A stretch of DNA of 64,000 bases. Source: Syntrophales bacterium (GTDB lineage Bacteria; Desulfobacterota; Syntrophia; Syntrophales; PHBD01). This document shows positions 1 through 43,491 of this stretch, in pieces (positions within the stretch are counted from its first letter, which is position 1; every line of letters begins with the position of its first letter). The translations under genes were made by a program, and so were the position numbers. Location: contig OY764159.1 of assembly GCA_963668175.1 (NCBI GenBank), forward strand, positions 4,448,001 to 4,512,000. The letters are read 5' to 3'. The notes under the pieces are model-generated. The model was given only the letters and a program-made list of their open reading frames with translations, made no database searches and was not told where the DNA came from.

Positions 1-1599
1 CAGAATTTCGAAGTTCCGGTCGGCGATCCGTTCGGCAATACGGACCGTATATTTTATAACGTCATGCAAAGCGGCAAGGACAACGATAATTCGGCGTTTT
101 CCTGCGGTTCGGGCGTCATCTACCAAAGGGAGGCGCTCCAGGAAATCGGCGGTTTCAGCACGTGGAACCTCGTCGAAGACGTCCACACATCCATGCTTCT
201 GCATGAACGGGGCTGGCGTTCTGTTTATTACAACCACCCCCTGACCAAAGGAACGGCCCCTGCGGATATCTACGGCGTCTATACCCAGCGCCGGCAATGG
301 GCAGCCGATTCCCTGAGGATTATGTTCTGGGACAATCCTTTCTTTCACAAGGGGCTCAGCTTCAAACAGAAGCTGCAGTATTTCCATCTGGGTTTTGTCT
401 ATCTGGTCGCCGCTTTCGTCATGCCCTTTTTCTTCATCACGCCCATTTTGGCCCTGCTCGTACAGGAATTCGTCCTCACGTCGCCCGTCGCCACTTACGT
501 CATCCACCGGTTCCCCTATTTCATTGCTATGTCGATGGCCTACGGTCTGATCAACTATCCGACACCCTACATGAAGGCGTTTCAGATGTGGACAGGCCTC
601 TTCCCCCCTTTCATCCGGGCGACATGGATGGCGCTCCTTTCGAGAAAAAAGAAGCCGACGTACCGCGTCAACGTCAAACCGGGGGCAAAGAAGAAAAGAA
701 GGAAGAGTCCCTGGATTGCCGTCATTCCCCAACAGGGAATCATCATTCTCGCGATCTTCGCCATGATTTACGGTTTCATCGAATGGGAGAACAAATCTTG
801 GGATTTTTACATCCTGAACTGCATCTGGGCATTCTGGTCCATCTGGACCATGAGCGGGATATGCATTGCCGCCGTCAAGAAGCATAAGTGGCCGGAAGAG
901 GATGCGGCAGGAACCAAGAAGCCCGTGCCTTTCTTTTCCCGGATCGGGGAGCTGGTTTTGACGGTCGTCCTGTCGGCCGGTGTCCTCGTTTTCTTTACGC
1001 TTGGAGATATGACGGAAGTCAATAAATTCATGACGAGTTTCCGTCTGGAAGTCCTGACGACGGTCGGAATCGAAAAACCTGTTGCGAAAATCGGCCAGGC
1101 GATTTCTCCGCAAACACCTGCAACGGAAGCGGGTATGAGTGCCACGGTCCTTTCGCCGTCCAAGGTCCAACCCGTTCCGCTCCAGGAAAAGAAGGAAGAA
1201 ACCCCTTCATCTCCAGCGCCGGCCGTACCGGTTCAGACGACCGTAGCCCAGGAGAAAACGGCCAGCCCACCGCCCCCCCCGGAGAAAAAGAAGGAAGAAG
1301 TCTTAAAGACGGACGGCGACTGGGCGGTGCAGGTGATTGCCGTACACACCAAGAAAGCAGCGGACGAGCAAAAGGCGAAACTTAAGGCAGCCGGCTTCAA
1401 CGCATACACGTATCAGCCGCCGTCGAACGTCAGAAAGAAAAAGAAGCCCTGGGTCCGGGTTTTTGTAGGTTTTTACGCAAGCAAGGAAGATGCCCAAAAG
1501 GCCGGAGAGAAAATCCGGGAAACGGTATTCCCGTCCAAGAAGCCGTACTGGAGCGTCAGATTTTCGCCCAAGGATAAGGAGATGCTCGCTGGAAATTGA
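1..1599 (+). CDS. Cellulose-synthase-like processive GT2 glycosyltransferase (5'-truncated) with C-terminal TM, Pro/Ala linker and SPOR domain
   Basis: Frame is open from base 1 (QNFEVPVGDPF...). Motifs: FSCGS, VED (TED-like), QRRQW (QxxRW-like), several TM helices, YRVNVK (FxVTxK gating-loop analogue). C-terminal WAVQV..KLKAAGFNAY..WVRVFVGFYASKEDAQK matches the SPOR pattern. Confidence 0.85.
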   Translation, partial: QNFEVPVGDPFGNTDRIFYNVMQSGKDNDNSAFSCGSGVIYQREALQEIGGFSTWNLVEDVHTSMLLHERGWRSVYYNHPLTKGTAPADIYGVYTQRRQWAADSLRIMFWDNPFFHKGLSFKQKLQYFHLGFVYLVAAFVMPFFFITPILALLVQEFVLTSPVATYVIHRFPYFIAMSMAYGLINYPTPYMKAFQMWTGLFPPFIRATWMALLSRKKKPTYRVNVKPGAKKKRRKSPWIAVIPQQGIIILAIFAMIYGFIEWENKSWDFYILNCIWAFWSIWTMSGICIAAVKKHKWPEEDAAGTKKPVPFFSRIGELVLTVVLSAGVLVFFTLGDMTEVNKFMTSFRLEVLTTVGIEKPVAKIGQAISPQTPATEAGMSATVLSPSKVQPVPLQEKKEETPSSPAPAVPVQTTVAQEKTASPPPPPEKKKEEVLKTDGDWAVQVIAVHTKKAADEQKAKLKAAGFNAYTYQPPSNVRKKKKPWVRVFVGFYASKEDAQKAGEKIRETVFPSKKPYWSVRFSPKDKEMLAGN

Positions 1600-1600
1600 A

Positions 1601-2497
1601 ATGCCGGATAGATGCATCGGCCTTTATCTGCCGGAAGATTTCACGGTATCTGTACAAAAGGCCGCTCAGTATCAAACGTCGTGGGCAAAGCGAATTGCGA
1701 TACTCTCCTTTTTTACGGCATGGGGAAACGGATTCGAAAATCCCGACCTGACGGGGATCGAACTGGCCGCGCGAAACGGTTATCTGCCGATGATAACCTG
1801 GGAGCCCTGGCGGTATCACGATCCGTCGAACGCCGGAAAACCGGAAGACCAGCCCGATTTTTCGCTCTCTGAAATCCTGAAAGGCAGGTATGATGCCTAC
1901 CTTCGGCGGTGGGCCGCGGATCTTGCGGCTTTAAGAAGCCCCATCCTGTTCCGTCCGATGCACGAGATGAACGGTAATTGGTATCCATGGTGCGGAACGG
2001 TCAACGGAAATCGTCCGGAAGCGTATGCAGAAACGTGGCGCTACATCCGCTCCATTTTCCGCGAAGAGGGAACCGGCCCATTGATATGGGTTTGGTCTCC
2101 TTACGCGCATTCCGTCCCGGACGAGTCGGGCAACGAAATGGATCTTTACTACCCCGGCAACGGGGAGGTGGACTGGCTTGGTCTGGACGGTTATAACTGG
2201 GGAGACAGCCGTCCCTGGTCGCGGTGGCAGAGCTTCGATGAAATCTTTCAAAAAGGGTACGATTGCCTGGTAAACCTCGCGCCTGAAAAACCGCTTATGA
2301 TTGCCGAGACGGGATGCGCGGAGGAAGGGGGCGACAAGGGCAGGTGGATCGCCGAAGCAGCGGAAATACTGACAGGACGGTTCCCTCAGATCAAGGCGTT
2401 GATATGGTTCAACACGAATAAGGAATGCGACTGGCGCATCGATTCGTCTCCTGAAAGTTCGCAAGCCTTCAGGGATCATTGGAACTGGAGTCATTAA
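1601..2497 (+). CDS. Glycoside hydrolase family 26 (beta-mannanase/beta-glucanase-like)
   Basis: ITWEPW, RPMHEMNGNWYPW (acid/base Glu), WVWSP, GLDGYNWG, LMIAETG (nucleophile Glu). ATG at 1601 lies 1 nt after the upstream stop and is preferred over 1490. Confidence 0.88.
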   Translation: MPDRCIGLYLPEDFTVSVQKAAQYQTSWAKRIAILSFFTAWGNGFENPDLTGIELAARNGYLPMITWEPWRYHDPSNAGKPEDQPDFSLSEILKGRYDAYLRRWAADLAALRSPILFRPMHEMNGNWYPWCGTVNGNRPEAYAETWRYIRSIFREEGTGPLIWVWSPYAHSVPDESGNEMDLYYPGNGEVDWLGLDGYNWGDSRPWSRWQSFDEIFQKGYDCLVNLAPEKPLMIAETGCAEEGGDKGRWIAEAAEILTGRFPQIKALIWFNTNKECDWRIDSSPESSQAFRDHWNWSH

Positions 2498-2528: not shown

Positions 2529-3287
2529 ATGAGAGATCAAGCATGGGTGCATAGGCAGGACATAAAAATCGGGCGATGGTTTTTTCTATGGTTATTCTTA
2601 TTTCTAACACTTGCTTCCGCCCGTTCATCTTACGCCCTGGATTTTTCGACATTCGCCGGAGGAGAAATCGACGGTCGCAATCAGGGATTCTCTTATCTCG
2701 GCTTCGAGTTGGCCCAGAAGATCACGAATCACGTCGCCGTTGCCGGGAGGGTCACTCCGAGCTACCTCGTTTACAAATACTATTCGGGTGACACGATCAT
2801 TCGAGCCACGTCGCCGGGGATCACCCCTGTGGCTGGTCTCAAATTTTCCTGGGAGAAAACATCTTTCGGCATCTTCGGCGGAGGGGAATTCAGAAACACG
2901 ACGTTGAGTCCCGATGATCAAAATGCGTCCGTAAGGGGGGCCTCATCGGCAGGAGTCGTTCAGGGCGAATTCGACCACTGGTTCCCGACCAAGACAAACT
3001 TCAGCGTCTGGGGGAGCTACAGCGGAACGAGCGATTTTTCTTATGAAAAGGCCAGGATCAAGCAGCAAATTACCAACTTGGACTACAAAGGGCCAGTGAA
3101 TCTTATGGTCGGAATTGACCAGACCTACGGGAGAAACGCGGATTTCCATGGAATAACGGTAGGCCCGATGGTCGAGATGTACTACATCCCCTGGAAAGTC
3201 TCGGTTGCGCTGCGGGGCGGGTATAAGCACGATTCGACCTTCGGAGGCGGAGGCTACGGCGGTATTGAATTGTATAAAGGATTCTAA
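2529..3287 (+). CDS. Outer-membrane beta-barrel protein, BcsS-like
   Basis: Signal peptide (…SSYA|LDF), Gly/Tyr/Ser-rich alternating beta-strands, C-terminal Phe (IELYKGF), position in the GT2/GH operon. Family name is an inference. Confidence 0.6.
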   Translation: MRDQAWVHRQDIKIGRWFFLWLFLFLTLASARSSYALDFSTFAGGEIDGRNQGFSYLGFELAQKITNHVAVAGRVTPSYLVYKYYSGDTIIRATSPGITPVAGLKFSWEKTSFGIFGGGEFRNTTLSPDDQNASVRGASSAGVVQGEFDHWFPTKTNFSVWGSYSGTSDFSYEKARIKQQITNLDYKGPVNLMVGIDQTYGRNADFHGITVGPMVEMYYIPWKVSVALRGGYKHDSTFGGGGYGGIELYKGF

Positions 3288-3637: not shown

Positions 3638-4366
3638 GTGAATATATTCAAAAGATTATTTCTTATTTTAACTTTCCTGGCTATCACAACAGGCCTCGGA
3701 ACAGGAACGGCCTTCGCTTATCAGATTTATATCGACGGCAGGGACGATGCCGGGACATACGGGGGCGAACAAGCCTTTGTCACTTTAATGTATGACGGCG
3801 GATCTATGCCTGTCACAACGGGTGACGCCGCAACACGCTGGACCAGCCAAGCCGAAGTATGGGCCTATGCAGGATCAAAAAATGTCGCCAACCTTAACGC
3901 ATGGATTAAATCCGCCGGAAACATCTGGTCATCAGATACGACGGTCGGAGAGTCATTGACCGGGCTCTCGGCCGGCACTTACCACATCACTCCGGTACAG
4001 GCCACTTATCTGGCTTTTCAGCGGGACACCTTCAATTGGAGTAATTACTACGGAAAATACTGGTGGGAATTGAAGATCACTGCTACGAATGTTTACGTAG
4101 GCGGAACACATTATGACTCCTATGACTTCACCCTTGGAACCAACCTCGGATACGATACAGCGTCATTAGCTTTCGATTCGGTTCTGAACAGCTATCTGGA
4201 CGTCATCCTGGGAGACGGAGGAACGCTCACCTTCTGGATATACGATGACGGCACCGTCGACAACGCCGGAGGACTTTCCGTGGAAATAACGATGGTCCCC
4301 GAACCCTCGACGCTGCTTTTATTGCTGCTCGGCGTTCCCTTTGTCTTAAGAAAATTCCGGAAATAA
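3638..4366 (+). CDS. PEP-CTERM sorting domain-containing surface protein
   Basis: GTG start after AGGGGGA. Signal peptide (…TAFA), Thr/Gly/Asp/Tyr-rich body, C-terminal VPEPSTLLLLLLGVPFVLRKFRK. Confidence 0.93.
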   Translation: MNIFKRLFLILTFLAITTGLGTGTAFAYQIYIDGRDDAGTYGGEQAFVTLMYDGGSMPVTTGDAATRWTSQAEVWAYAGSKNVANLNAWIKSAGNIWSSDTTVGESLTGLSAGTYHITPVQATYLAFQRDTFNWSNYYGKYWWELKITATNVYVGGTHYDSYDFTLGTNLGYDTASLAFDSVLNSYLDVILGDGGTLTFWIYDDGTVDNAGGLSVEITMVPEPSTLLLLLLGVPFVLRKFRK

Positions 4367-5769: not shown

Positions 5770-6642
5770 TCAATAACGCCGGGCAACGACGATGACGTAT
5801 TGATCCTGGAAATTTTTATTGATGTGCGCAAGCACGCTACCGGGGCAATCCCTCATGAAGAGGCAGATCCCGCCGGCCGTAGATGAATCGAAGTAGCCAT
5901 AATCGTTAACATAATCATGAATATGCTCATGCCCTACGGCCTTTTCCCAGATATTTCTTTCGTCTTCCCGGACGGCCAGACCAAAGGCCAGATGCGTCGG
6001 TGACGGCCGCGACTCGGATGCAAGCCATGCCATGGCGGCTTCACGCGACGGGAACGACCTGACGGCGATCAATTCGCCGATGGCTCCGTCTTTCGAGGAG
6101 CGGAAGTAAAGCCAACAGCTTCCTTCCACGTGTTTAACGCTTTCGTAAGGCAGGTCGTATTTTCGCTCGAAATGCACTTCCGACAAATTGACTTCGTCCA
6201 CTCCGCCGATAAGCGCGCTGTGCACCAGGCCTATTCCCATATCGGCCTTCAGAAGCTCCAGCCCCCTTTCGAAGGAAAGATTCTGGCTGGAGATGGAAAT
6301 GTTCCGCCCTTCCACGTTCAGCCCCTGGGATACGTAAAAAGAGGCCGTATTCGACATCGTATTGATAAAATTATAGGGCATGGGCAGAGATTGCTTCCTG
6401 TATATCTGGTGGAGAACATTCTCCGTGTCCCCCAGATTGCCTCTTTCCGTCGTGAGATAGACAGATGTCCTGCGGTCCAGATCTTTTCCGAAAACGGACT
6501 TATGGGCGCCGATCAGGGACAGGATGACGAACTTGTTGACGCGGCGGAAATGGACCTCGGTATAGCGTTTCAGTTCGTCCTTTAAAACGTGACCGTCCTT
6601 GACCGGTGCCGTGAGAAATATCGAGAATGAATGGATGAACAT
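5770..6642 (-). CDS. Beta-ketoacyl synthase chain-length-factor-like protein (non-catalytic)
   Basis: RRVNKF, PYNFINTMSNTA, ALIGGVDE, EGSC. The catalytic Cys position reads SSQNLSF. Starts 1 nt after the KS stop. Confidence 0.75.
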   Translation of the reverse strand: MFIHSFSIFLTAPVKDGHVLKDELKRYTEVHFRRVNKFVILSLIGAHKSVFGKDLDRRTSVYLTTERGNLGDTENVLHQIYRKQSLPMPYNFINTMSNTASFYVSQGLNVEGRNISISSQNLSFERGLELLKADMGIGLVHSALIGGVDEVNLSEVHFERKYDLPYESVKHVEGSCWLYFRSSKDGAIGELIAVRSFPSREAAMAWLASESRPSPTHLAFGLAVREDERNIWEKAVGHEHIHDYVNDYGYFDSSTAGGICLFMRDCPGSVLAHINKNFQDQYVIVVARRY

Positions 6643-6643
6643 C

Positions 6644-7798
6644 TCAATCCTTGTTCGAAACGACGAGGGAAGTGCAATTCCCGCCAAAACCGAAATAGTT
6701 GAACATCAGGGTGGCGTTTCCCATGGTCAGGTTGTCCGTTACCGGCGTTATGCCCAATTCTTCGTCGCTCGTCTGAAAACCGGGAGTCGCGGGCAGGAAG
6801 CCGTTTTTGACCGCCTCGGTGACAATGATCATCTCGATGACCCCCGAAGCCCCGACCGTATGGCCGACATAAGGTTTGATGCAGGTAACCGGGGGCATTC
6901 GGTTTCCGAAAACAGACTTCATACCGTTGCACTCCGTTCGGTCGTTGCTGTCGCTCCCGGTGGCATGGGCCTTGACGGCGTCGATGTCCACGATTTCTAC
7001 GCCCGCATTGGCCATCGCCTGACCAATGACTTCGGCGATCCAACTTCCCTCGATCGTGTGGCTGGTGACGTTAAACGTGTCGCACAGATTCGCCCCCCCT
7101 CGAATGCGGAAACCGTTTTCGTCCCCGCTTCCCGTATCAAGAATCAGCGCACCGCACCCTTCCCCCATGATAATGCCGTCCCGGTATTTATCGAACGGTT
7201 TGTAGAACGTCTGCGACATGAGTTTAAGGGCTTCGAACCCGTAAAAGCCGGTATTGTTGAACAGGTCATACCCGATGACAAGAGCCCTCTCGATCATGCC
7301 CATTTTGATCATTTGAGAGGCATAGAGGATCGCATTGGCGCTGGACGTACAGGCCGTCGTAAATGTGTAGCACGGCCCGGTGATTCCGAAGCGTCTCGTC
7401 ACTTCCGCCACGAGGGACCCATACCCCAGCGATGCATTGGAAAAATAGTGCGTGCCGTTGACGTCCGATTTTTCATAGTAACTTTCATAGATGGGAATAT
7501 CGATGGACGTGGAACCGAAAAAGACGGCCAGGTTCTTCGTTTCGGATTCTGAAAGGCCCGCGTCCTCTATAGCCCTGGCGATCGTATCGAAGAGGACATC
7601 GTAAAAGAAGGTCTCGGCGCTCCCTCCCCGATTCCGGCGAATACGGTAATAGGGCCTCGAATAGGGAAGCTGTACATGGCTTAAAGGGATGTTCTCCGTG
7701 CAAACATATTTGTCCTTCACGCGGGCAACGACCTCTCCGATATCTTCGCCGAGAGAACAGACAATCGCCCTGCCGCGTATGAAAACATTCCTGTCCAA
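6644..7798 (-). CDS. Beta-ketoacyl-ACP synthase (FabF/FabB-like, active)
   Basis: TACTSS, AHATGS, KPYVGHTVGASG, FGFGGN. TTG start. Confidence 0.92.
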   Translation of the reverse strand: MDRNVFIRGRAIVCSLGEDIGEVVARVKDKYVCTENIPLSHVQLPYSRPYYRIRRNRGGSAETFFYDVLFDTIARAIEDAGLSESETKNLAVFFGSTSIDIPIYESYYEKSDVNGTHYFSNASLGYGSLVAEVTRRFGITGPCYTFTTACTSSANAILYASQMIKMGMIERALVIGYDLFNNTGFYGFEALKLMSQTFYKPFDKYRDGIIMGEGCGALILDTGSGDENGFRIRGGANLCDTFNVTSHTIEGSWIAEVIGQAMANAGVEIVDIDAVKAHATGSDSNDRTECNGMKSVFGNRMPPVTCIKPYVGHTVGASGVIEMIIVTEAVKNGFLPATPGFQTSDEELGITPVTDNLTMGNATLMFNYFGFGGNCTSLVVSNKD

Positions 7799-7802
7799 GC
7801 GA

Positions 7803-8075
7803 TTACTCCGGTTGAATATAATCGGCGAAGGCGTTGATGGATGTCATGACCCGCCTCATTTCCTTGCTGTCCGTAATCGTGATGCCAAACCGGTTCTGGA
7901 TGGCAATCGATATCTGCAGGGCATCGATGGAATCAAGTCCCAGTTTCGACTGGCTGCCGAAAAGCGGTCCCTCGTCGTCAATATCCGCGGCGCTTATCCT
8001 GTCGGCCAAATCGCACTCCTCGACAATCAGCGTCTTCAATTCGATCTTCAGCTGTTCATCCAATGAACCTCTCAT
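7803..8075 (-). CDS. Acyl carrier protein
   Basis: Acidic 90-aa protein with the LGLDSIDALQ phosphopantetheine site. Confidence 0.93.
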   Translation of the reverse strand: MRGSLDEQLKIELKTLIVEECDLADRISAADIDDEGPLFGSQSKLGLDSIDALQISIAIQNRFGITITDSKEMRRVMTSINAFADYIQPE

Positions 8076-9313
8076 ACACTATGGCCTCTTTCAAATTGAT
8101 TCTTGAGAATGATCATTGTTATCACGAGCATGATCAAACCGAAAAGTATAAGCGATAGGGATTTTATCAAAACATCACCGACGCCTCCGTGTCTCAGGAA
8201 CACGTCGAGGAAGCCTTCCAGACCCCAGGACATCGGGGATATGATCGACAATTTCTGCATAAACTCGGGCATGACAAACGTCGGCACCATGATGCCTCCG
8301 ATGGCGGCAAAAATAACGTGCATGACGCCGCTTACGGTGGTGGCCTGCTCCGTTGTTTTCGCCAGCGACGAAATCAGGAGCGCCAGGGAAATCGCGCTGA
8401 AACTGACGCTGGCCGCGATCAGTAACAACCCTCCGAAGGAATCGCCCAGGGTCAGCGCCTGGCCGCCCAGGAGAGGAACGGCATACATGCCGACCATGAT
8501 CATGAGGAAGACCTGGGTCATGTTGATCAGGAAATAGGGCAGAAATTTTCCGAAGAGGAGATAACCCTTCGATACGTTCATGCTGATCATGCGGATCAGG
8601 GTTCCCTGATTTTTTTCCGTGATGAACGTATTGGCGATCGGCATGGAGATGAAGAACATGGCAAAGACAAGCCAGGCCGGCACGGACTGCTGAACCGCGG
8701 AAGGGACGGCGGCAGCCTGCTTATCTTTGTAAACATAACGGATTTCCAGGGCAGGATCGTCGGATACCAGGAGATTCCTTTTCAGGGCTTTCCGGTCGAC
8801 CTTGGCGTAATCGAGCAAAGTGCCTATATTGTCCACGAAAGCGCCGAATCTTAATTTCCCCATGCTGGCGCTTATCGCCTCCTTGAAGACGGCCTGCGTC
8901 TGGGTGCTGACGATGGGATTTACCAACATCAAGAGAGGTTTCCTGCTTTCGTTGACGTTCTTACTTTCCACCACGGCGGTAAAATCTTCCCCGATGATGA
9001 TGGCGAATTTGAAGTTCTCCGCCAGCATCCGGCTGCGTAAGCCTTCCGCATCGACCTTCCCGTTTACGGGATGGACCACGAATGCGCCGATTTTTCCAAG
9101 ATTCTCCAGAAAGAGCTTCGACTCTCCGCCCTTGTCGTTATCGGCCACCAGGACGTGTATCTGCACCTTCGTATGCCCGGCAAACAACTCCCCCATTGCC
9201 ATGGACATAACCATGATGAAGGCCGCCGGCAACAGAAACAAGAGGATCAGCGACGGGATATCCCTGCCGATGATCAGGAATTCCTTTTTCAGGACGTACC
9301 GTATTTTATTCAT
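8072..9313 (-). CDS. ABC-2 type exporter permease
   Basis: KKEF..RD N-terminus, periplasmic loop, QQSVPAWLVFAMFF, EKNQGTL.R, GGIMVP, SPMSW. Confidence 0.9.
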   Translation of the reverse strand: MNKIRYVLKKEFLIIGRDIPSLILLFLLPAAFIMVMSMAMGELFAGHTKVQIHVLVADNDKGGESKLFLENLGKIGAFVVHPVNGKVDAEGLRSRMLAENFKFAIIIGEDFTAVVESKNVNESRKPLLMLVNPIVSTQTQAVFKEAISASMGKLRFGAFVDNIGTLLDYAKVDRKALKRNLLVSDDPALEIRYVYKDKQAAAVPSAVQQSVPAWLVFAMFFISMPIANTFITEKNQGTLIRMISMNVSKGYLLFGKFLPYFLINMTQVFLMIMVGMYAVPLLGGQALTLGDSFGGLLLIAASVSFSAISLALLISSLAKTTEQATTVSGVMHVIFAAIGGIMVPTFVMPEFMQKLSIISPMSWGLEGFLDVFLRHGGVGDVLIKSLSLILFGLIMLVITMIILKNQFERGHSV

Positions 9314-10226
9314 CTCTCAGATGGGCATGGGTCAGCTTTAAAAAAAGTTCTTCAAGGTTCTCGGAACCAAAAGAAATTTTTCTTATCACAAGACGGTTCT
9401 CTTCTAAAAGAGAAAAGACTTGGGTTAAATTCCCTTGAAATTTTTCATTTTTATCAATTCTAATATGTCCCGCACCGGCGTCTACGCCCGGAATGCGTTT
9501 CAACAACTCTGCGATTTTGTCATCGAGGCCTTCCACGCTGATCTTCATGACGGCAGCACGGTTCAACACGTCGTTTTTCCGGCCGTGCAGAACGATCTTT
9601 CCGGCATCGAGAATGGCAATATCGTCGGAAACCTGCTCGATCTCATCCATGTAATGAGACGTATAAACAATGGTCGTCCCCCGTTCTTCCCGGATGTTCT
9701 TTATCATTTCCAGCATATAGCTTCGCGATTGGGCATCGACGCCTACGGTGGGCTCATCGAGATAAAGGATCTGGGGATCGTTGAGCAGGCCGATGGCGAG
9801 GTTCAACCTCCTTTTCATGCCGCCGGAAAACTTGGCGACAGCCTTATTCACAAAAGACTGGAGGCTCGCGATATCGATCGATCGTTCAATCCGGTCCTTC
9901 ATCGTCTTCCCCTTCAATCCATACAGAGCACCGAAATATTCAAGATTTTCATAGGCTGTCAGCGTGGGATAAAGGGCCAGGGTTTGGGGAACGATGCTGC
10001 TGATTGAGCGAATCCCGTCCGGCTCCCGGTCGAGGGAGAGTCCGTTGATCATCACTTGCCCGCTGTCTTTGGCGATCAACGCCATAAGAATGGAGATCAG
10101 GGTGGTCTTGCCGGCGCCGTTCGGACCCAATAAGCCGGTTATCACCCCCCTGCGAACGGAGAGCGTGACGCGATCGACGACCTTAACGTTGTCATAGGAC
10201 TTACAGAGGTTTTCTATCTCTATCAT
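9306..10226 (-). CDS. ABC exporter ATP-binding protein
   Basis: GPNGAGKTT, FSGGMKRR, LDEPT, SHYM. Start at MIEIENL. Confidence 0.93.
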   Translation of the reverse strand: MIEIENLCKSYDNVKVVDRVTLSVRRGVITGLLGPNGAGKTTLISILMALIAKDSGQVMINGLSLDREPDGIRSISSIVPQTLALYPTLTAYENLEYFGALYGLKGKTMKDRIERSIDIASLQSFVNKAVAKFSGGMKRRLNLAIGLLNDPQILYLDEPTVGVDAQSRSYMLEMIKNIREERGTTIVYTSHYMDEIEQVSDDIAILDAGKIVLHGRKNDVLNRAAVMKISVEGLDDKIAELLKRIPGVDAGAGHIRIDKNEKFQGNLTQVFSLLEENRLVIRKISFGSENLEELFLKLTHAHLRDE

Positions 10227-10495
10227 ACGGTTTAAGCGTTCAGCGAAGCAGGAAGACTTCCAATCCTTTTTACGGTTCCCGAAGGACGCTTCGGTCATAT
10301 TTTGTAAAATGTCGGTAAGCATAGGGAAAGAAAGTCCGGATGTCAATATTATTCGGCCGGGCACTGAAACAAACAACATTAAGAGGCAATTCCTTAAGCG
10401 GGATAGAATCTTAATAAGTTGTTGAGAAAATGGAAACGATGCGGTATGACATTTCCCGTTGCTTGATTAACCCGTCCTCAAAAGGATCATCAGCC

Positions 10496-12064
10496 ATGAA
10501 AAAGGATCTATCTAACAATGCCGATCAGGTCGGGACAGTCACCGTCGGCAAGGGAATCGTTTCCCTGGAGAAGATTATATCCGTCGCCAAAAACGAGGCG
10601 GCAGTACAGGTGAGCTCCGAACGGCGCTTCATCAACCGCATGACCCAGTCTCAAGATCAGCTCAAACGGTCCCTCGCAAACGACGTACCCGTTTACGGCG
10701 TGAACACCGGTTATGGAAAATCCTGCGGCAAACGTCTCTCGATGAAGAAAGCCAGCTTCTTAAATGTCAACCTCCTGCGCTTTCACGGATGCGGAACAGG
10801 TGAACCGATCGGCATCGAAGCGACCCGCGCCGCCATCCTTTGCCGCATGATTTGCCTGGCGAAGGGCTACTCTGGCGTTTCCATTGCCCTTCTGGAGAAA
10901 ATGGCCGAGTTTCTTAATCATGATATCATCCCTGTCGTGCCATGCGAAGGTTCCGTCGGCGCGTCCGGCGACCTCACCCCCATGTATTACATCCTGGCCT
11001 GCCTGGCCGGAGACGGGGAGGTCTTTTACCAGGGAAAGCGAGTGGCCACCAAAGTCGCCTTGAAAAAGGCCGCAATTAAACCGCACTCATTCCAACACAA
11101 GGAACCGCTTTCCATGCTCAACGGCACGACGGTCATGACCGGCATCGCCGCCATGGCTGTCGACAGGGCGCAAAGAATCCTCCATGCGGCCATATGCGCC
11201 TCCGCCCTGACCGTCCATGCCTTGAAGGGCCACGTCCATCATTTTCATCCCGTCATCGGCGAAGCCAAGCCTTTTCCCGGCCAGATATTTGTCGCCGACA
11301 GTCTGACCGGACTGCTCCACACCAAGGGGGACCTTGCCAGCATGGAGGCAGACACCGTAGAAACGCTACAGGACCCCTATTCGGTACGATGCAGCCCCCA
11401 GATTCTCGGCGTTCTCCACGATGCCCTGACCTGGGTCAGGGCCTGGGTCGAACAGGAAGCGAACAGCTCCAACGACAATCCCATCTTCGATCCCGCGACG
11501 GGGAAACCGCTTATGGGAGGCAACTTCTACGGCGGGTATATCTCCTTCGCCATGGACGGCTTAAAGACGGCCATCGCGTCCGTCGGCGACATGTCCGACC
11601 GCCAGGTCGCATTGCTCGTCGATCCCCACCAGAACCGCGGGCTCCCTGCGGACCTGGTCCGCGAAAACGGCGATCCGCATCTCCTTCGGCATGGTTTCAA
11701 GGCCATGTCCATATCGACGTCGGCACTGGCTGCTGAAGCCCTCAAAGGCACCATGCCGGCAGGCTCATTTTCCCGGCCGACCGAATCCAACAATCAGGAC
11801 AAGGTGAGCATGGGCACCATCGCCGCAAGGGACGCCGAGAGGAATTGCACGCTCGTGGAACGCATCGTCGCCATTCACCTTCTTGCCGCCGCCCAGGCCT
11901 GCGAGATTCGCGGCGCCTATGGCATACGTCCGAAACTTGCCGCACTCGTCAAGAAGATCCGCACCATCGCCAAAGAGACGATCGAGGACCGTCATATGGA
12001 CAAGGATATCGATCGCGTGGCGAAAGCCATCACCGAAACCGATTTGTTTGTCTTAAGGAAATGA
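10496..12064 (+). CDS. MIO-dependent aromatic amino acid ammonia-lyase (HAL/PAL/TAL family)
   Basis: YGVNTGYG, GSVGASGDL (MIO triad), NGT, QDPYSVRC, NDNP, GGNF, NQDKVSMG. Specificity loop reads LRFHGCG. Confidence 0.93.
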   Translation: MKKDLSNNADQVGTVTVGKGIVSLEKIISVAKNEAAVQVSSERRFINRMTQSQDQLKRSLANDVPVYGVNTGYGKSCGKRLSMKKASFLNVNLLRFHGCGTGEPIGIEATRAAILCRMICLAKGYSGVSIALLEKMAEFLNHDIIPVVPCEGSVGASGDLTPMYYILACLAGDGEVFYQGKRVATKVALKKAAIKPHSFQHKEPLSMLNGTTVMTGIAAMAVDRAQRILHAAICASALTVHALKGHVHHFHPVIGEAKPFPGQIFVADSLTGLLHTKGDLASMEADTVETLQDPYSVRCSPQILGVLHDALTWVRAWVEQEANSSNDNPIFDPATGKPLMGGNFYGGYISFAMDGLKTAIASVGDMSDRQVALLVDPHQNRGLPADLVRENGDPHLLRHGFKAMSISTSALAAEALKGTMPAGSFSRPTESNNQDKVSMGTIAARDAERNCTLVERIVAIHLLAAAQACEIRGAYGIRPKLAALVKKIRTIAKETIEDRHMDKDIDRVAKAITETDLFVLRK

Positions 12065-12113
12065 GGCATCATACAGCCACAGCAAGATATTATAACGCGA
12101 ACAGGAGGGAAGA

Positions 12114-12719
12114 ATGAATCGACACGAGGAGACGATCGGGGACAAAAACGGTTCGACATCCGCAGCCGGCAGGCTCTTGCTGGTTATGGCCGGCCTGTTG
12201 ATTTCGGCTCTCCTTGTCTCGGGATGTGCCGAGGTCAAAATCCCCGTTCACAGGCACCTATACAGGCCCGACCTGCCGAAATCCGTCACCGGTTTCTACA
12301 AGGGAAAACAGATCGACATGAACGGTTTCGAGAACCGCGATGAGATGACGAAGCGGTGGACCTATTTCAGCCCGGACAAGAAAGTCGCCTACGAAGCATC
12401 GGTTCCATTGGAGTACTTCGTCCTGGACTGCTTCCGCGATGCCTTTTGGCTCGCCGGCGCCAGCGTTCTCAAGGATTCGCCCATTACGACCATTCCCGAT
12501 TTGTCCATCATCATCGATCACTGGACGGACCAGGAATTCATCTTTACCGCAACCGTCATGAAGGATAATGCCCTGAAGTTCAGAAACCAGTATAAGATAA
12601 CGGCGCCCGCCGCCAATATGAACGATACGACGAAGCTGGAGAAAAACGTCTATGAAATGATGAACAAGGCCGTCCTGGCGGTCATGACCGATCCCGCCTT
12701 CCAGGCCATTTATAGGTAG
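12114..12719 (+). CDS. Hypothetical lipoprotein
   Basis: AGGAGG RBS, hydrophobic stretch ending in lipobox LVSG-C, downstream terminator. Confidence 0.7.
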   Translation: MNRHEETIGDKNGSTSAAGRLLLVMAGLLISALLVSGCAEVKIPVHRHLYRPDLPKSVTGFYKGKQIDMNGFENRDEMTKRWTYFSPDKKVAYEASVPLEYFVLDCFRDAFWLAGASVLKDSPITTIPDLSIIIDHWTDQEFIFTATVMKDNALKFRNQYKITAPAANMNDTTKLEKNVYEMMNKAVLAVMTDPAFQAIYR

Positions 12720-12733
12720 ATCGCCTAGAACAT

Positions 12734-12771
12734 AAAGACGGGAAGGGCTGCCGCCGCGCCCTTCCCGTTTT
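12734..12771. terminator. Intrinsic terminator
   Basis: ACGGGAAGGGC…GCCCTTCCCGT followed by TTT, between convergent genes. Confidence 0.75.
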
Positions 12772-12790
12772 CTGTATCAACATTCCCCAG

Positions 12791-13276
12791 CTATACTTCG
12801 CTGACCGTCACCTTGACCATGCGGTCGCCCTGCCTCACGGCGTCCACAATGTCCATCCCTTTGACAACCTTGCCGAATACGGTATGCCGTCCGTCGAGGT
12901 GCGGTTGCGGCGAGTGGGTGATGAAGAACTGGCTGCCGTTCGTGTCCGGTCCGGCGTTCGCCATGGAAATGACCCCCGTTTCATGGATCAAAGGGTTGTC
13001 GTCCAGTTCGTCTTCAAATTGATACCCGGGACCGCCCCGGCCGGTCCCGGTCGGATCGCCGCCCTGAATGACAAAATCGCTGATCACCCGGTGGAATATA
13101 ACACCGTCGTAGAATCCCTCCCGGATCAGAAAGACGAAGTTATTGACGGTTTTGGGCGCATGTTGCGCATAGAGTTCAAGTTCGATCACGCCTTTGTTGG
13201 TTTCCATGGTACAGAGATAAACCTTGCCCGGATCTATCTGCATCTCCGGCGGACTGGTCCATTTTTTCGCACTCAT
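12791..13276 (-). CDS. Cyclophilin-type peptidyl-prolyl cis-trans isomerase
   Basis: [46 protein letters not shown]. Confidence 0.95.
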
Positions 13277-13354
13277 TCACTTCCTCCTTACCTATTAGGT
13301 TTGTAAAATGATCAATAAAAGGCCTCGACCTGCCACGATCGTTATGAATGGCAT

Positions 13355-14137
13355 TTAGCGCCCTTTGAAGACCGGCTCCCTTTTTCCTTTGAAAGCGGCT
13401 ATCCCTTCCTGATGATCTTCCGTTTCGATACACAGCAGCTGCATGCCGATTTCAACTTCCAGGCTTGACTGAAGATCGATTCCAATATTCTGGTTCATGG
13501 CCTTCTTGATCATGCTTATGGCCACAGGGGCCCCGGCCGAAAGTCTCCCGGCCATTTTATATGTTTCCATCCTGAGCTGATCGTCGTCGAAGACCCTGTT
13601 GGCGAGTCCCATCTCATAGGCCGTTGCCGCATCGATCACGTCCGCCGTGAAAGCGAGTTCCTTGGCCCGGTGGAGACCGACGGCCCTCGTCATGAAATAG
13701 GTGCTGCCGCCGTCGGGTACCAGGCCGACCCTCGCAAAGCTCAAAGCCAGGCGTGCCGAACGGGCGCAATAAACGATATCGCATGCGAGAACCCAACTGC
13801 ACCCTGCCCCGGCGGCGACGCCGTTGACCATGGCAATGACCGGTTTAGGCAGCCGGACGATGGCGTTCGTGACGGCGTTGATGCCTTCCATATAGCGGCG
13901 GGTGACGCCGACATTGGCGAAGGTCTCCACGTAAGGGAGATCGGCTCCGGAGCAAAAGGCCTTGCCCGCCCCGGTAAAGACGACGGCACGAACTTCCGGG
14001 TCCGCCTCTGCTTTGAGGAACATCTCGACGGTGTCGTCCAGTAACGACTGCGACATGGAGTTGAATGTCTGGGGATTGTTCAGGGTAATGGTTGCAATAC
14101 GATCCTTTTTTTCGTACAAGGCCTGCTTTTCACTCAT
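13355..14137 (-). CDS. Enoyl-CoA hydratase/isomerase (crotonase family)
   Basis: AFCSGADL, KPVIAMVNGVAAGAG, GLVPDGG, EGIAAFKGKREP. GGAGG RBS before ATG 14137. Confidence 0.9.
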   Translation of the reverse strand: MSEKQALYEKKDRIATITLNNPQTFNSMSQSLLDDTVEMFLKAEADPEVRAVVFTGAGKAFCSGADLPYVETFANVGVTRRYMEGINAVTNAIVRLPKPVIAMVNGVAAGAGCSWVLACDIVYCARSARLALSFARVGLVPDGGSTYFMTRAVGLHRAKELAFTADVIDAATAYEMGLANRVFDDDQLRMETYKMAGRLSAGAPVAISMIKKAMNQNIGIDLQSSLEVEIGMQLLCIETEDHQEGIAAFKGKREPVFKGR

Positions 14138-14195
14138 CGTGACACCTCCACAATGTTCGGGGATTGCCTCTCCATGGATGAACCGCACCGGACGG

Positions 14196-15713
14196 TCATT
14201 CCAACCGTTTTTTCAACTCCCGCTTTAGGATCTTGCCCGCCGTGTTTCTCGGAAATTGATCGACAAAAATAATCTTCCTGGGCATCTTGTACTGGGCGAT
14301 TCGCCCCTGCAGACCGTGGATGACGTCGCTTTCTGACAACGTTTGGCCTTCGTGAAGAAGGACGAACGCCGCAACGACCTCGCCCCTCCTGTTGTCGGGC
14401 ATTCCCACGGCCGCCGCTTCCCTGACTGCCGGAAGCGCTTCGATGGCCCTCTCGACCTCGGCGGGATAGATATTTTCACCGGAACTGATGATCATTTCCA
14501 CTTTCCGGCCGACGATATACAGGAATCCGTCGTCATCCCGCCGTCCCATGTCCCCCGTATGGAACCACCCGTTTCTCACGGTCTTCTTCGTCTCTTCCGG
14601 CCTCATCCAATAGCCCGTGGAGACATTCGGTCCCCGGACAATAATCTCTCCAGCTTCTCCTGCCGGAACATCGCGGTCCTCGTCATCCACGATGCGCATC
14701 CGGACGTGAAAGACCTCTTTCCCCACGGAACCCGCCTTCGTGATGGCATCTTCGAGGTCCAGGGAGGTCAGCCGCCCGGTTTCCGTCAGGGCATAGCCCT
14801 GCGCGAATCCGACGCCTTTCTCTTCCTGATACTTCCGGATGACGGCCACGGGGATAGGGGCGCCTCCGGATATGAAGAAATGGACATGTGAAAAATCCGC
14901 CGCCGGCCACTCGGTTGTCTTTGTCATCAGTTGATACATGGCGGGAACGGCGAACATGTAATTGATCTTCTCCCGCACCACCAGATCGACCACATCCGAG
15001 GCGTTATAGAAACCCTTGATGACCAGGGAGCCGCCGGCATAAACGACGGGGATCACGGATGCCCCCAGGGCGCCCATATGAAAAAGAGGGCTCGTCACCA
15101 GCGATTTATAGGTCTTGTTGACGCCGTATCCGACCAGCGAATGGATGGCCGCAAATAAGAGATTCTCATGGGTAATCACCGCACCCTTCGGATCGCCTGT
15201 CGTGCCCGACGTATACATGATCAGGAGCGGATCGGCAAGGCCGACGCCTCCCGCCGCATCCGGCTCTCCCCCGGGGAAGGCCGAAACATGGGAAGAGAAG
15301 TCCCGATCGCCGGAAGGCTCCTTTCCGCCGTGCCGGTGCCAGTGGAGAATCTTCAGATCAGATGCCTTGAGGGCATCGACTGTTTTGTCGAATTCGGACG
15401 AATAGACCAGCATCCGCGGCTTGGCATCCCGCAGGATGTGCATCAGTTCGGGCGGCGCCAGACGTATGTTGAGAGGAACCATGATGGCTCCCGTCTTGGC
15501 GCAGGCGAAGAGGATATCGAGGAACTCGCAGGTATTGACCATGAGAACGGCGATACGCTCGCCCTTGACGATTCCCAGAGATGTCAGGGCATGGGCGGTC
15601 CGGTTGACCCGTTCGTTGAACTGGCGGTTGTCGAATTCGCGATCGTCCTCTTTCAGGAACGGCCTTTCGGGTTTGTTTAGGGCACGCTTGGAAATCCACT
15701 CGCCGATATTCAT
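14196..15713 (-). CDS. Long-chain/aryl acid--CoA ligase (AMP-binding, MenE/FadD-like)
   Basis: YTSGTTGDPKG, GYALTE, WFHTGD, GENIYPAEVE, GKILK. Confidence 0.92.
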   Translation of the reverse strand: MNIGEWISKRALNKPERPFLKEDDREFDNRQFNERVNRTAHALTSLGIVKGERIAVLMVNTCEFLDILFACAKTGAIMVPLNIRLAPPELMHILRDAKPRMLVYSSEFDKTVDALKASDLKILHWHRHGGKEPSGDRDFSSHVSAFPGGEPDAAGGVGLADPLLIMYTSGTTGDPKGAVITHENLLFAAIHSLVGYGVNKTYKSLVTSPLFHMGALGASVIPVVYAGGSLVIKGFYNASDVVDLVVREKINYMFAVPAMYQLMTKTTEWPAADFSHVHFFISGGAPIPVAVIRKYQEEKGVGFAQGYALTETGRLTSLDLEDAITKAGSVGKEVFHVRMRIVDDEDRDVPAGEAGEIIVRGPNVSTGYWMRPEETKKTVRNGWFHTGDMGRRDDDGFLYIVGRKVEMIISSGENIYPAEVERAIEALPAVREAAAVGMPDNRRGEVVAAFVLLHEGQTLSESDVIHGLQGRIAQYKMPRKIIFVDQFPRNTAGKILKRELKKRLE

Positions 15714-16960
15714 AAACCCCCTCCTGTTTCCGCATAGCGCTTGAAGACGACGGATGCATAGGTCCCGCCGAAGGAAACGCCGTTAAGCAGGGCACAGCGG
15801 ATCTCGGCGTCCGAACCTTTCTTTCCCGAAAAGGAGAGCGGCCAGGCGGGATGTTCGAGCCCCACGGTAGGGGGCAATTTTCCCTCCTTCATAGCCAGGG
15901 CCAGGACGGCGGCATTGATACCTCCCGCGGAGAAGGATTCCCCCACGCTTCCCTTGATGGAGAAAATGTGCGGTTTTGCCGTGCCGCCGTCAAAAATCGC
16001 CCCGTAGGCTTCCCCCTCCAGACCGTCGGGATTCCGGCCCCCGTTGGCGGAGGCGGCGATGGCGTCGATATCCGCCACACCGACGCCGGCATGAGCGAGC
16101 GCCCGGAAGACGGTCAGTTTCAATCCTTTCGGGTCGGACGGCCAATCCGAAGGCGGAGCCGGCGACGAACCCAGCCCCCATCCCGCCACAAGGCAGTATA
16201 TAGACGCCCCCCGCTCCAGGGCCGCATCCAGGGACTCAAGGCAGACAATCGCGCAGTTTTCGCCGGCGACAGGTCCGTTCCGCTTCGCGTCAAACGGCCG
16301 GGCTGATTCCATCCCGCCATCCCGGGGAGAAAGCGCCCCAAAACGCACAAGGGACTCGAAGAAGAATTCGGAGATAATGTCGCCTCCGCCCGCAAGCATA
16401 ACGTCCGCCGTACCCTTTTGAATTTCCGCCGCGGCGTAGGCAACGGCCGTCTCTCCCGAAACCCCGAAGTGGGTCACCGTCGAATTGACGCCCCGGAACC
16501 CCAGCTCGATGGAGGCATGGCTCGCCGGGGCATTGAGGACCGTATTGGGAACGAGAATCGGGTTGACCAACTCGGGACCGGATTTGATCAATGTCCGGGC
16601 AAACTGGACGGTGACGTCCGTCGGACCGAACGCCGTTCCGAGAATAATGCCCACCCGGTCGCGGTTGGAGGCTTCTATCTTGAGGCCTGCATCTTCCAGG
16701 GCCAGACGGGAGGCGGACGTGGCCGCGGAGGACAGCCTGTCCATCTTGCGCAGATTCTTGACCGAAACAAAATCGCGCGGCGAAAAGTCTCTGATTTCCG
16801 CCCCAAGATGGGAGCGGAAGCGGGACGTGTCAAAAGATGCAATCGGTGCGATGCCCGATTCTCCATCGTAGAGACGGCGCGAGAAGGTCTCTCTTCCGAC
16901 CCCCAAGGGAGATACGATGCCCACGCCGGTAACAACCGCTTGTCTGTTCATCTCAGGCAT
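15710..16960 (-). CDS. Full-length KS-fold chain-length factor (catalytically inactive)
   Basis: Aligns with FabF, but the triad is lost: THFGVSG for TACSSG, AASANG for AHGTAT, KGSVGES for KSMTGHT. Overlaps both neighbours. Confidence 0.85.
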   Translation of the reverse strand: MPEMNRQAVVTGVGIVSPLGVGRETFSRRLYDGESGIAPIASFDTSRFRSHLGAEIRDFSPRDFVSVKNLRKMDRLSSAATSASRLALEDAGLKIEASNRDRVGIILGTAFGPTDVTVQFARTLIKSGPELVNPILVPNTVLNAPASHASIELGFRGVNSTVTHFGVSGETAVAYAAAEIQKGTADVMLAGGGDIISEFFFESLVRFGALSPRDGGMESARPFDAKRNGPVAGENCAIVCLESLDAALERGASIYCLVAGWGLGSSPAPPSDWPSDPKGLKLTVFRALAHAGVGVADIDAIAASANGGRNPDGLEGEAYGAIFDGGTAKPHIFSIKGSVGESFSAGGINAAVLALAMKEGKLPPTVGLEHPAWPLSFSGKKGSDAEIRCALLNGVSFGGTYASVVFKRYAETGGGL

Positions 16961-18203: not shown

Positions 18204-18204
18204 A

Positions 18205-43200: not shown

Positions 43201-43491
43201 CAACGCCACCCTTAGTTCCAGCCGGTCCATGGCGGCGAAGGTAGATGAGCCGTCTCTTTCCCGGATTTGTATGCCCCGGAAGGTAAGGACGGGCCCTAAG
43301 GAAAAAGATAAATCGGCACTGTCGTAGGACACGTCGCGGTTGAGCGACGTCTTGAATGCCCGGACGATTTCTTCCTTATGGGTGGCAAGATCGGCCAGGC
43401 CGAGATAAGCGACGACCAGGCCGGCAGCGACAAGCAGAACCGCAAGGATGGATAAGATAATTACGATCTTTTTTCGGCGGGGCTTCATCAT
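40264..43491 (-). CDS. AsmA/YhdP-like bridge-type lipid transfer protein
   Basis: N-terminal TM anchor, long beta-rich body, C-terminal AsmA_2-like region (PYSQITGRF.LKDG, IPVVGWIL, GKWDNPDV). Start could also be 43488 or 43497. Confidence 0.82.
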   Translation of the reverse strand: MMKPRRKKIVIILSILAVLLVAAGLVVAYLGLADLATHKEEIVRAFKTSLNRDVSYDSADLSFSLGPVLTFRGIQIRERDGSSTFAAMDRLELRVALLPLFRKQVVIKRLLMEKPRLTLLRYPSGEFNISDLIGSKKEAPRSVEIRGLAVNGGHIEFLDQKISQTGIKTVLDGIRFRIGDLRRGEASHLDLETAVIQGDVKGDIALHGKIGIAAATVPLYRSRLEGGLVCRGLSLEQFWPYYRPCVPFEKMAGRLNLDSHLKGDIDNFSISGTVAVQKAVLAYPGVFPAVLKPQDIKVTCQLKKSPSDIAVENIRVTVDGMNITGRFAMKDLDKNDPFLSASATTTPFSLESYITYIPYGIIPGSVAGFIKKHITGGTYQLLEGSLAGRVSQIAHMGTNENYKTLHIRAGVKNGQMTFGETIPKFTKISGELELKDKDFYLRQMSGYFGESPLSLDGRITDYPVSVPTTYPFQMTMTPGPREIAWLLGKERAEKLFFSGKSVLRLTGKGTYDQYELEGDWDLTDASYRYNDTFVKRQGQPNRVVFKSLMNDNEARLVDGTYELAPLSIKVSGLYPFRGKRAAFVSFDSNLFRIQDIESAFPAIAKWRPSGNVRVSARLDGIDGAADDIRWQGSVTLADVSFLPGEAIKAVSSLNGTVQLQNEHLETSLIRGQIGSTPFQARAVLSGFTEPTLDLRLSAKAVDLRDIGLEGAAGPVLIKDFKGNVHWSDRGIRIRSLAATVNGSDLTVSGHVTDMPKPHYDIHVQSSHFDTDDLKIFTDLAKSKRNGTSPEVTVKATIHALEGKLQSVPYNKLSADLSWRQETLYVDSLRFNALGGNVSGSGRVFLTDRSEPRYQVAFNIDNISAGQTMAMVGLDPELMTGDMTIKGDLAGSGTHLSDIKRTVTGAVNLRADKGALHKFQVLSKVFSILNVSQLFKFQLPDMVSGGMPYSQITGRFTLKDGILASDDLYVKSDAMNITIIGKVDLVRGELEETIGVQPLQTVDKVVSHIPVVGWILTNETNSLVTMYFTAKGKWDNPDVQAVPVKDMAEGVLNIFRRLFQLPLKLITDTGDVILGR

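Follow-up and report, generated by a model that had tools for sequence, protein, structure and literature searches.

The stretch of DNA considered here, referred to as the window, comprises 64,000 nucleotides of a Syntrophales bacterium genome (assembly GCA_963668175.1, contig OY764159.1, positions 4,448,001 to 4,512,000 of the forward strand) and begins inside a gene for a BcsA-like glycan synthase that lacks a PilZ domain and ends in an extra transmembrane (TM) helix, a linker, and a SPOR domain. This 3′ part of the gene occupies positions 1..1599 on the + strand, corresponding to 532 codons and the TGA stop codon of a 750-codon gene, and is read in a single frame without a 5′ end in the window. 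Its translation is identical (100%) to the last 532 residues of the 750-residue protein P0002, which served as the full-length form for whole-protein analyses, and the 218 N-terminal residues of the synthase fall outside the window. Downstream, the synthase gene is followed by genes for a GH26 hydrolase, a BcsS-like secreted protein, and a PEP-CTERM protein. The subject here is the SPOR tail, its distribution among related synthases, and the role that it may serve.

The first part of the window protein is the C-terminal half of a cytoplasmic GT2 domain (1..405, +), as identified by Pfam, alignment with PDB structures, and motifs. Pfam reports Glyco_trans_2_3 (E = 1.1e-13) and Cellulose_synt (E = 2.9e-10), and the NCBIfam model CelA (TIGR03030) matches with E = 2.1e-46, aligning window residues 13-303 with profile positions 286-575 of 714; on full-length P0002 the match covers positions 55-574 of the same 714. 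In the PDB, E. coli BcsA (7lby) is matched with E = 1.6e-28 (window residues 13-294 to chain residues 410-692) and Rhodobacter BcsA (4hg6) with E = 4e-24 (7-293 to 290-574), the latter alignment stopping at chain residue 574, which is the end of TM8. The GT2 motifs D, DxD, and (T)ED are found in the window protein or in P0002 and are kept across the family, with LDD in 109, DAD in 111, and VED in 119 of 120 members; FSCGS is also conserved. In the window, FSCGSG lies at nt 97-114 and VED, a TED-type catalytic motif, at nt 172-180 (both +). The BcsA-like motifs claimed in the original prediction, which was made for this DNA from its letters, are thus borne out by the Pfam, TIGR03030, and PDB matches, though Q-x-x-R-W does not occur in its usual form: the window reads QRRQW (nt 286-300, +), a family variant of the motif. 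Gln precedes Trp in all 119 close family members with a residue at that position (Q-R-x-Q-W), the Arg is kept in 51 of 51 PilZ-bearing distant representatives, and synthases fused to GH26 vary at the Arg position (R, T, Q, or L). P0002 scores 274.6 bits on TIGR03030 and 222.8 on PRK11498, below the curated cut-offs of 699.1 and 992, respectively, and it has two N-terminal TM helices only. A protein atlas search with the synthase returned generic GT2 clusters only. PilZ (PF07238) gave no match in the window protein at E ≤ 0.1, nor in a scan at E ≤ 0.01, and residues 506-750 of P0002 contain no RxxxR motif, which agrees with the original prediction that the C-terminus carries neither. Because of the Q-R-x-Q-W variant, the scores far below the cut-offs, the absence of a BcsB gene from the neighbourhoods examined, and the lichenase-type GH26 partner described below, the enzyme is not an orthodox cellulose synthase. 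As part of the overall reading, it is on balance probable that the enzyme is an inner-membrane processive β-glycan synthase of the BcsA type, from a minimal subfamily without PilZ.

The GT2 domain leads into the membrane channel part (406..867, +), equivalent to TM5-TM8 of BcsA by PDB alignment and hydropathy. Hydropathy and the BcsA alignment place TM5 at nt 406-462, TM6 at nt 490-558, TM7 at nt 712-768, and TM8 at nt 811-867 (+), and the alignment also locates an interface helix (nt 571-639, +) and a gating-loop-like segment, YRVNVK (nt 661-678, +). The four post-catalytic helices that had been predicted are all accounted for: three are strong by hydropathy (window residues 136-154, 238-256, and 271-289), and a weaker one at 164-186 corresponds to BcsA TM6. 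At the point where PilZ begins in BcsA, there is instead a basic loop of 22 residues, KKHKWPEEDAAGTKKPVPFFSR (877..942, +), followed by an extra ninth helix, TM9, which hydropathy locates where it had been expected (943..1005, +; IGELVLTVVLSAGVLVFFTLG, window residues 315-335). The whole TM8-TM9 loop (P0002 508-532) has 6 K/R, 5 of them in KKHKWPEEDAAGTKKPVPFFSR, and this concentration of basic residues is the reason for considering the loop cytoplasmic. More generally, the K+R counts per loop in P0002, namely 11 (N-terminus), 0, 15, 1, and 6 (loop before TM9), show an in/out alternation, and the family mean counts follow the same alternation. Among relatives, 181 sequences were anchored on the core profile, and 135 full-core members remained after 46 with a partial core were left out. 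The extra TM9 is present in 119 of these 135, SPOR-less ones included; 117 of the 119 have exactly one extra TM, and the other 2 are among three multi-TM long tails.

Cytosolic PilZ is described as coming after the membrane domain of BcsA, at the end of TM8 (PMC8892547), and is placed at residues 584-676 in the Cereibacter enzyme (PMC10374906). Since the BcsA chain is cytoplasmic after TM8, one further helix would place the tail outside. The company kept by TM9 in other BcsA-like synthases points the same way. The post-TM9 slot holds PG_binding_1 in P0132 and GH26 in others, both extracytoplasmic domain types. Of the 98 distant representatives of at least 600 aa that were scanned with Pfam, 9 are GH26 fusions (P0156, P0164, P0165, P0167, P0173, P0175, P0197, P0222, and P0248), with exactly one extra TM in all 7 that were checked. 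Parity with BcsA, positive-inside counts, and the domains found in the slot thus agree in suggesting that the tail is periplasmic, as had been argued from TM parity. TM9 is followed by a conserved juxtamembrane segment (nt 1006-1056) and a linker, which together span 1006..1311 (+) and would likewise be periplasmic. A long Pro-rich linker is present as originally described; it is not strictly Pro/Ala/Glu but rich in Pro, Thr, Glu, Lys, and Val, with 15 P, 12 T, 11 E, 11 V, 11 K, and 9 A in the 100 residues preceding SPOR. Mean pairwise identity falls from 0.48 in TM9 to 0.39 in the juxtamembrane segment and 0.27 in the variable linker (P0002 576-655), the length of which ranges from 55 to 106 aa across the family.

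The SPOR domain (1312..1575, +) was identified through Pfam PF05036 and alignment with FtsN. A SPOR domain folds as a four-stranded sheet flanked by helices. PF05036 matches window residues 438-506 with E = 6.1e-14 and 52.5 bits against a gathering cut-off of 21, well past anything that chance would give. As a single sequence, the tail has weak matches in the PDB (0.094 and 0.23), and a family SPOR profile built from 13 tail segments (the window and 12 from genome loci) matches the FtsN SPOR structure 1uta best (2.1e-5), followed by DamX, DedD, CwlC, and RlpA. In FtsN numbering, which is the 1uta chain index plus 238, the family W-x-V-Q-V-x-S aligns with Q251 and S254, and W-I-R aligns with W283 and R285. 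In the window, these correspond to WAVQV (nt 1318-1344, +) and WVRV (nt 1447-1473, +), with residues Q444, A447, W484, and R486 (P0002 Q662, A665, W702, and R704), and the last SPOR strand reads YWSVRFS (nt 1546-1566, +). Across the 13 segments, Q251 is matched by Gln in 9, His in 3, and Asn in 1; S254 by Ser in 10 and Ala in 3; and W283 and R285 by Trp and Arg in all 13. Q251, S254, W283, and R285 are reported as four of the five FtsN residues whose change lowers septal localization, and in RlpA-ligand crystal structures the Gln and a basic patch are described as holding the free lactyl carboxylate of MurNAc (PMC6895207). According to the same source, the need for this free carboxylate is why SPOR binds only peptide-free strands, and its ligand, denuded glycan, is enriched at septa (PMC6895207). 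The C-terminal SPOR domain that had been claimed is therefore upheld by the Pfam match, the FtsN profile match, and the retained septal-targeting residues. Its length is fixed at 82-87 aa with a mean pairwise identity of 0.47, and alongside the low identity and variable length of the linker this is as expected of a functional domain on a flexible tether. Scores for whole-protein models are far lower, at 30.7 for FtsN (TIGR02223, cut-off 107.65) and 22 for DedD (NF008641, cut-off 150), and only the linker and SPOR part aligns. A word-indexed search with the SPOR tail alone matched P0002 and P0003 only and is uninformative on other architectures. A second SPOR protein is encoded at 62107..62886 (-) of the window, combining an NlpC/P60 peptidoglycan hydrolase domain (3.8e-30) with SPOR (3.8e-14). 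This protein, which is not closely paralogous to the synthase tail, also puts SPOR on a peptidoglycan hydrolase in the same genome.

The SPOR-bearing form of the synthase is a narrow clade. Of the best 120 clusters listed by the homologue search, PF05036 occurs in 43, PF24125 in 2, and PilZ in 0; SPOR was additionally seen in P0009 by direct scan, beyond those 43 clusters. Relatives are encoded at 62 loci, with one genome per species, and the window's own genome is not among them (best match 61%). A SPOR tail is found at 12 of the 62 loci, all from Syntrophales, Syntrophaceae, Syntrophorhabdus, Thermodesulfobacteriota, or unclassified 'Deltaproteobacteria'. In both samples the fusion is confined to Syntrophales-type Thermodesulfobacteriota. 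At 50% clustering, the SPOR form reduces to one full-length representative, P0037, and one fragment. By tail type, the 135 full-core members divide into 42 with one SPOR, 5 with two SPOR, 10 with other long tails, 61 with a short tail and one extra TM, and 17 that end directly after TM8. A short tail without any added domain is therefore found in 78 of the 135 and SPOR in 47. The survey of GT2+SPOR architectures that had been suggested along with the prediction also turned up, among more distant synthases, a separate N-terminal SPOR in P0217. In a FastTree phylogeny of the core (128 distinct rows), 43 of 43 SPOR rows fall within one clade of 70 with support of 100, which also includes 20 TM9-only rows, 6 with other long tails, and 1 truncated row. 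Tandem SPOR domains are found in L005, L007, and P0006.

Since PilZ is missing throughout the subfamily, with or without SPOR, the proposal that SPOR stands in the place of PilZ is not sustained. PilZ is present in 51 of the 98 distant representatives, among them P0217, a near-canonical BcsA (586.9 bits on TIGR03030) that carries PilZ together with an N-terminal SPOR (Pfam 8.3e-13). With 21% identity to the tail SPOR, the SPOR of P0217 is an independent fusion, and its presence beside PilZ means that the two domains are compatible. PG_binding_1 is fused to BcsA-like synthases in P0132, in the same post-TM9 slot, and in P0155, at the N-terminus. The family SPOR profile found no match among 50 representatives shorter than 600 aa, which lay outside the Pfam scan. 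Neither SPOR nor GH26 was found in the 23 proteins of at least 1314 aa matched in a search for longer forms, and no synthase-SPOR-GH26 triple fusion was seen among those 23 or the best 150 at 50% clustering, proteins of 932-1313 aa being covered only at 50% clustering. Other fusions seen among BcsA-like synthases involve bactofilin (P0230, P0263), receiver (P0123), MshEN (P0244), BcsS (P0261), BcsB (P0225), and TPR domains. The fusion of BcsS to an inner-membrane enzyme in P0261 is unexpected if BcsS forms a barrel in the outer membrane.

The gene for the GH26 hydrolase (1601..2497, +) begins 1 nt after the synthase stop codon. It is followed by the gene for a BcsS-like secreted protein with a signal peptide and a C-terminal ...YKGF (2529..3287, +) and by that for a protein with a PEP-CTERM sorting signal (3638..4366, +), both conserved members of the cassette; a stem-loop lies between these two genes at 3454-3486. 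A GH26 homologue is found downstream of the synthase in 36 of the 62 loci, from many phyla, the BcsS-like protein in 17, and the PEP-CTERM protein in 21. Gene order varies, with BcsS upstream in L010, L011, L013, and L014, and in L011 and L014 the cassette forms part of a larger polysaccharide locus of the Wza/Wzz type. Neither a BcsB nor a BcsC gene was found among the ORFs within about 7 kb on either side in 6 loci (23 ORFs scanned with Pfam, the window itself showing the downstream side only), and no BgsB-like (membrane-fusion-type) gene was found among the same 23 neighbouring ORFs. The BcsS-like and PEP-CTERM proteins gave no usable match in the PDB.

By Pfam and PDB comparison, the GH26 enzyme is of the lichenase type (CtLic26A-like). 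Its closest structure, matched along almost the entire chain (residues 23-292), is the GH26 module of endoglucanase H from C. thermocellum (E = 5e-51, as opposed to 3.6e-11 for the best mannanase). Chain residue E109 is matched by E122, and E222 by E236, in the comparison with the window GH26, and this pair, which we take to be the catalytic Glu residues of GH26, is kept. Lic26A is described as the single GH26 lichenase reported at the time (PMC7157769). These hints suggest that the polymer may be a β-glucan, possibly mixed-linkage, rather than mannan. A mannan synthase was considered on account of the GH26 family name and of ManC upstream in L014, and was rejected because the match of the GH26 to the lichenase is stronger than that to any mannanase by 40 orders of magnitude.

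Taken as a whole, the SPOR-tailed synthase is an uncharacterised variant of a known enzyme type. No paper on a synthase-SPOR fusion was found in the literature searched, as judged by titles and abstracts, in line with the earlier claim that no synthase of this architecture has been characterized, and database records of relatives are labelled 'SPOR domain-containing protein' or 'cellulose synthase (UDP-forming).' As in BcsA (4hg6, 7lby; TIGR03030), a GT2 domain with D/DxD/(T)ED and FxCGS motifs lies between TM helices, and a TM5-8 channel with a gating-loop-like segment is aligned over about 285 residues; unlike BcsA, the synthase has no PilZ, reads Q-R-x-Q-W, has just two TM helices at the N-terminus, and adds TM9 and a probably periplasmic tail. 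The locus also differs from the Bcs operon in having no BcsB or BcsC gene in view and a GH26 in place of BcsZ, which is described as a GH8 (PMC8892547). For a BcsA-like enzyme without PilZ, the nearest precedent in function is BgsA, the mixed-linkage β-glucan synthase of Sinorhizobium meliloti, here set beside it from published descriptions of a BcsA-like GT2 without PilZ (PMC10374906; PMC5567048), and the lichenase-type partner hints at a BgsA-like polymer. BgsA is described as having a cytoplasmic c-di-GMP-binding C-terminus and a BgsB partner (PMC5567048), whereas the synthase here has a TM helix and a putatively periplasmic SPOR. Plant CesA, as portrayed in PMC10374906, resembles it in working without BcsB and in having an extra C-terminal TM helix, and here too a helix is added and no BcsB gene is seen alongside. 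The CesA helix serves trimerization, however, and bears no periplasmic domain. The tail itself is arranged as in FtsN, DedD, DamX, and RlpA, with a membrane anchor, a long low-complexity periplasmic linker, and a C-terminal SPOR with equivalents of FtsN Q251, W283, and R285. In contrast to those proteins, it is anchored by the final helix of a polytopic enzyme, and no divisome-activating segment was seen, though none was searched for.

From these features, a role for the tail can be proposed. By homology to BcsA, the synthase would polymerize a β-glycan in the cytoplasm and thread the chain through its own channel. It would be co-transcribed with the lichenase-type GH26 and would usually be accompanied by the BcsS-like and PEP-CTERM proteins. 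After TM8, its chain would be briefly cytoplasmic in the basic loop before TM9 crosses to the periplasm, where a Pro-rich spacer of 55-106 residues would let one or two SPOR domains, as an FtsN/DedD-like tail, reach the sacculus. There, SPOR would bind denuded strands left by cell-wall amidases and tether the synthase to the sacculus, and because such strands are enriched at the septum, polymer secretion would be biased to division sites and new poles. In this proposal, the tail would be an accessory positioning module, neither part of the catalytic core nor a substitute for c-di-GMP control. The combined proposal, in which the tail ties the enzyme to peptidoglycan from the periplasmic side and should be found preferentially at septa and new poles, is judged slightly more probable than its negation. 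The architecture and its conservation, the motif pattern, the gene partners, and the retained SPOR residues are direct observations, from which periplasmic location, peptidoglycan binding, localization, and polymer type are inferred; septal or new-pole localization would be a reasonable inference from the biology of SPOR domains. Spatial precedents have been described in BcsQ, at the pole of E. coli, and in the polar secretion of cellulose by Agrobacterium (PMC8892547); neither uses a wall-binding domain on the synthase itself.

Several observations weigh against this proposal. Within the domain, the window protein has Phe at the second Arg of W-x-R-x-R, which the other 12 of 13 segments all keep, and 4 of the 13 have H or N where FtsN has Q251. 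The periplasmic placement of the tail rests on parity and analogy, and TM6 is weakly hydrophobic on the hydropathy scale used. PG_binding_1 in the post-TM9 slot of P0132 speaks for general wall tethering and not for septal targeting specifically. The standalone GH26 shows no signal peptide or hydrophobic N-terminus, either in the window or in the 21 loci with a locatable conserved start, in any upstream-frame reading, which leaves a gap in the periplasmic picture of the cassette; fused forms would place GH26 in the periplasmic slot, and the standalone form would be either cytoplasmic or exported by an unseen route. Finally, the tail comes and goes. Explaining the SPOR label on the core tree takes 10 changes, of which well-supported branches force at least 5, counts that cannot separate gain from loss and that include SPOR-less rows which are perhaps broken or truncated genes. 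L008 ends without SPOR, with GH26 directly after, and in L035 (11765-12094) an in-frame stop interrupts the linker ahead of a decayed SPOR remnant with altered Trp and Arg positions and a premature end, which appears to be a SPOR tail in the process of loss. In one sub-branch of the SPOR clade (L002, L004; P0040, P0052), the tail has the NTF2-like domain Cds6_C (PF24125, E = 2.2e-8 and 4.5e-9) where others have SPOR, and the literature searched on Cds6 offered nothing relevant to the NTF2-like domain. From its sequence record, SPOR thus appears to have been lost or replaced several times within its clade and to be evolutionarily dispensable. The cases of loss, replacement, and duplication therefore suggest that TM9 came first and that the tail is an exchangeable accessory.

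The main rival to the proposed septal tether is a general cell-wall stator, in which the tail fixes the synthase to the sacculus at any position, keeping it in register with an outer-membrane exit or resisting the push of the growing chain, and any septal or polar bias has no functional importance. The PG_binding_1 domains of P0132 and P0155, which are not septum-specific, fit equally well with such a role, as does the swapping or loss of the SPOR tail while the cassette stays. How Bcs systems cross the wall is described as unknown, and in situ information on the crossing as lacking (PMC8892547). The clade nonetheless uses SPOR, for which the ligand is described as the septum-enriched denuded glycan (PMC6895207), and it keeps the septal-targeting residues of FtsN. 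A stator is accordingly rated as a serious contender that is still rather unlikely.

A second alternative is that SPOR guides the product, binding the enzyme's own nascent β-glycan as a peptide-free β-linked chain and so replacing the carbohydrate-binding domains of BcsB. The lack of a BcsB gene beside the synthase in the loci examined agrees with this, and BcsB is itself portrayed as a tail-anchored periplasmic guide (PMC8892547), the tail being likewise a membrane-anchored periplasmic module. Against it, SPOR recognition is described as requiring the lactyl carboxylates of MurNAc together with a basic patch (PMC6895207); a neutral glucan lacks such carboxylates, and the Arg matching FtsN R285 is invariant. 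The sister forms with TM9 alone, an NTF2-like domain, or PG_binding_1 and the long flexible linker that sets SPOR far from the channel exit also fit poorly, and the guide is considered improbable.

Slightly less probable again is a wall-state sensor, in which the binding of SPOR to denuded glycan would be relayed through TM9 to switch catalysis on, taking over the gating role of PilZ and c-di-GMP. With PilZ absent and Gln in place of the QxxRW Arg in 119 of 119 members, control must differ from that of BcsA, and the higher conservation of TM9 and the juxtamembrane segment than of the linker might reflect such a relay. However, most relatives (78 of 135) read QRxQW with neither PilZ nor SPOR, which means that activity cannot require SPOR; a low-complexity linker of 55-106 residues is a poor signal conduit, and P0217 has SPOR and PilZ together. 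It is very improbable that the fusion arose through an error of assembly or annotation or is neutral and without function, for which the breaks in L006 (11390-11560; an in-frame stop exactly at the invariant core Trp, W485 of P0002, reflecting either a pseudogene or a sequencing error) and L035 (the linker stop) could be cited. The artefact raised as a concern in the original prediction is excluded by the continuous frame in the window and by recurrence in many independent assemblies (43 of 120 clusters, with ncbi, jgi, ena, and lgn as the four sources, and 12 of 62 loci), and a neutral fusion is opposed by the fixed length of SPOR, its conserved key residues, and its tandem copies in L005, L007, and P0006.

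Elsewhere in the window, a cluster at about 5770..18430 contains three ketoacyl-synthase-like genes, an ABC-2 transporter pair, an aromatic amino-acid ammonia-lyase, an AMP-binding enzyme, and an enoyl-CoA hydratase, and looks like an aryl-polyene or similar lipid-pigment pathway. A 1077-aa AsmA/YhdP-like protein, from a family of envelope-spanning lipid transport proteins, is encoded at 40267..43497 (-). An Rfam scan of the window found one tRNA only.

The placement of synthase-dependent polysaccharide machines on the cell and their relation to the peptidoglycan layer are poorly understood. A synthase with its own wall-binding domain offers a simple handle on this problem, given that the tail can be removed, swapped, or tagged, and relatives with no tail, one SPOR, two SPOR, NTF2-like, PG_binding_1, or GH26 domains provide a natural comparison set. 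The family also bears on what is essential for processive glycan synthesis, having a BcsA-type channel without PilZ, no BcsB gene alongside, and Gln for the Arg of QxxRW. Its lichenase-type partner hints at a mixed-linkage or other β-glucan in anaerobic syntrophs, in which matrix and aggregates matter for interspecies metabolism. More tentatively, and with the odds against so specific a scheme, TM9 may be a plug-in socket for periplasmic modules (SPOR, PG_binding_1, NTF2-like, and GH26), with SPOR coupling PilZ- and BcsB-independent glucan secretion to amidase-processed septal peptidoglycan. If this is true, the synthase itself would couple cell division directly to the formation of matrix or aggregates in syntrophic Thermodesulfobacteriota, and the polymer would be deposited at the division site or new pole during cell separation.

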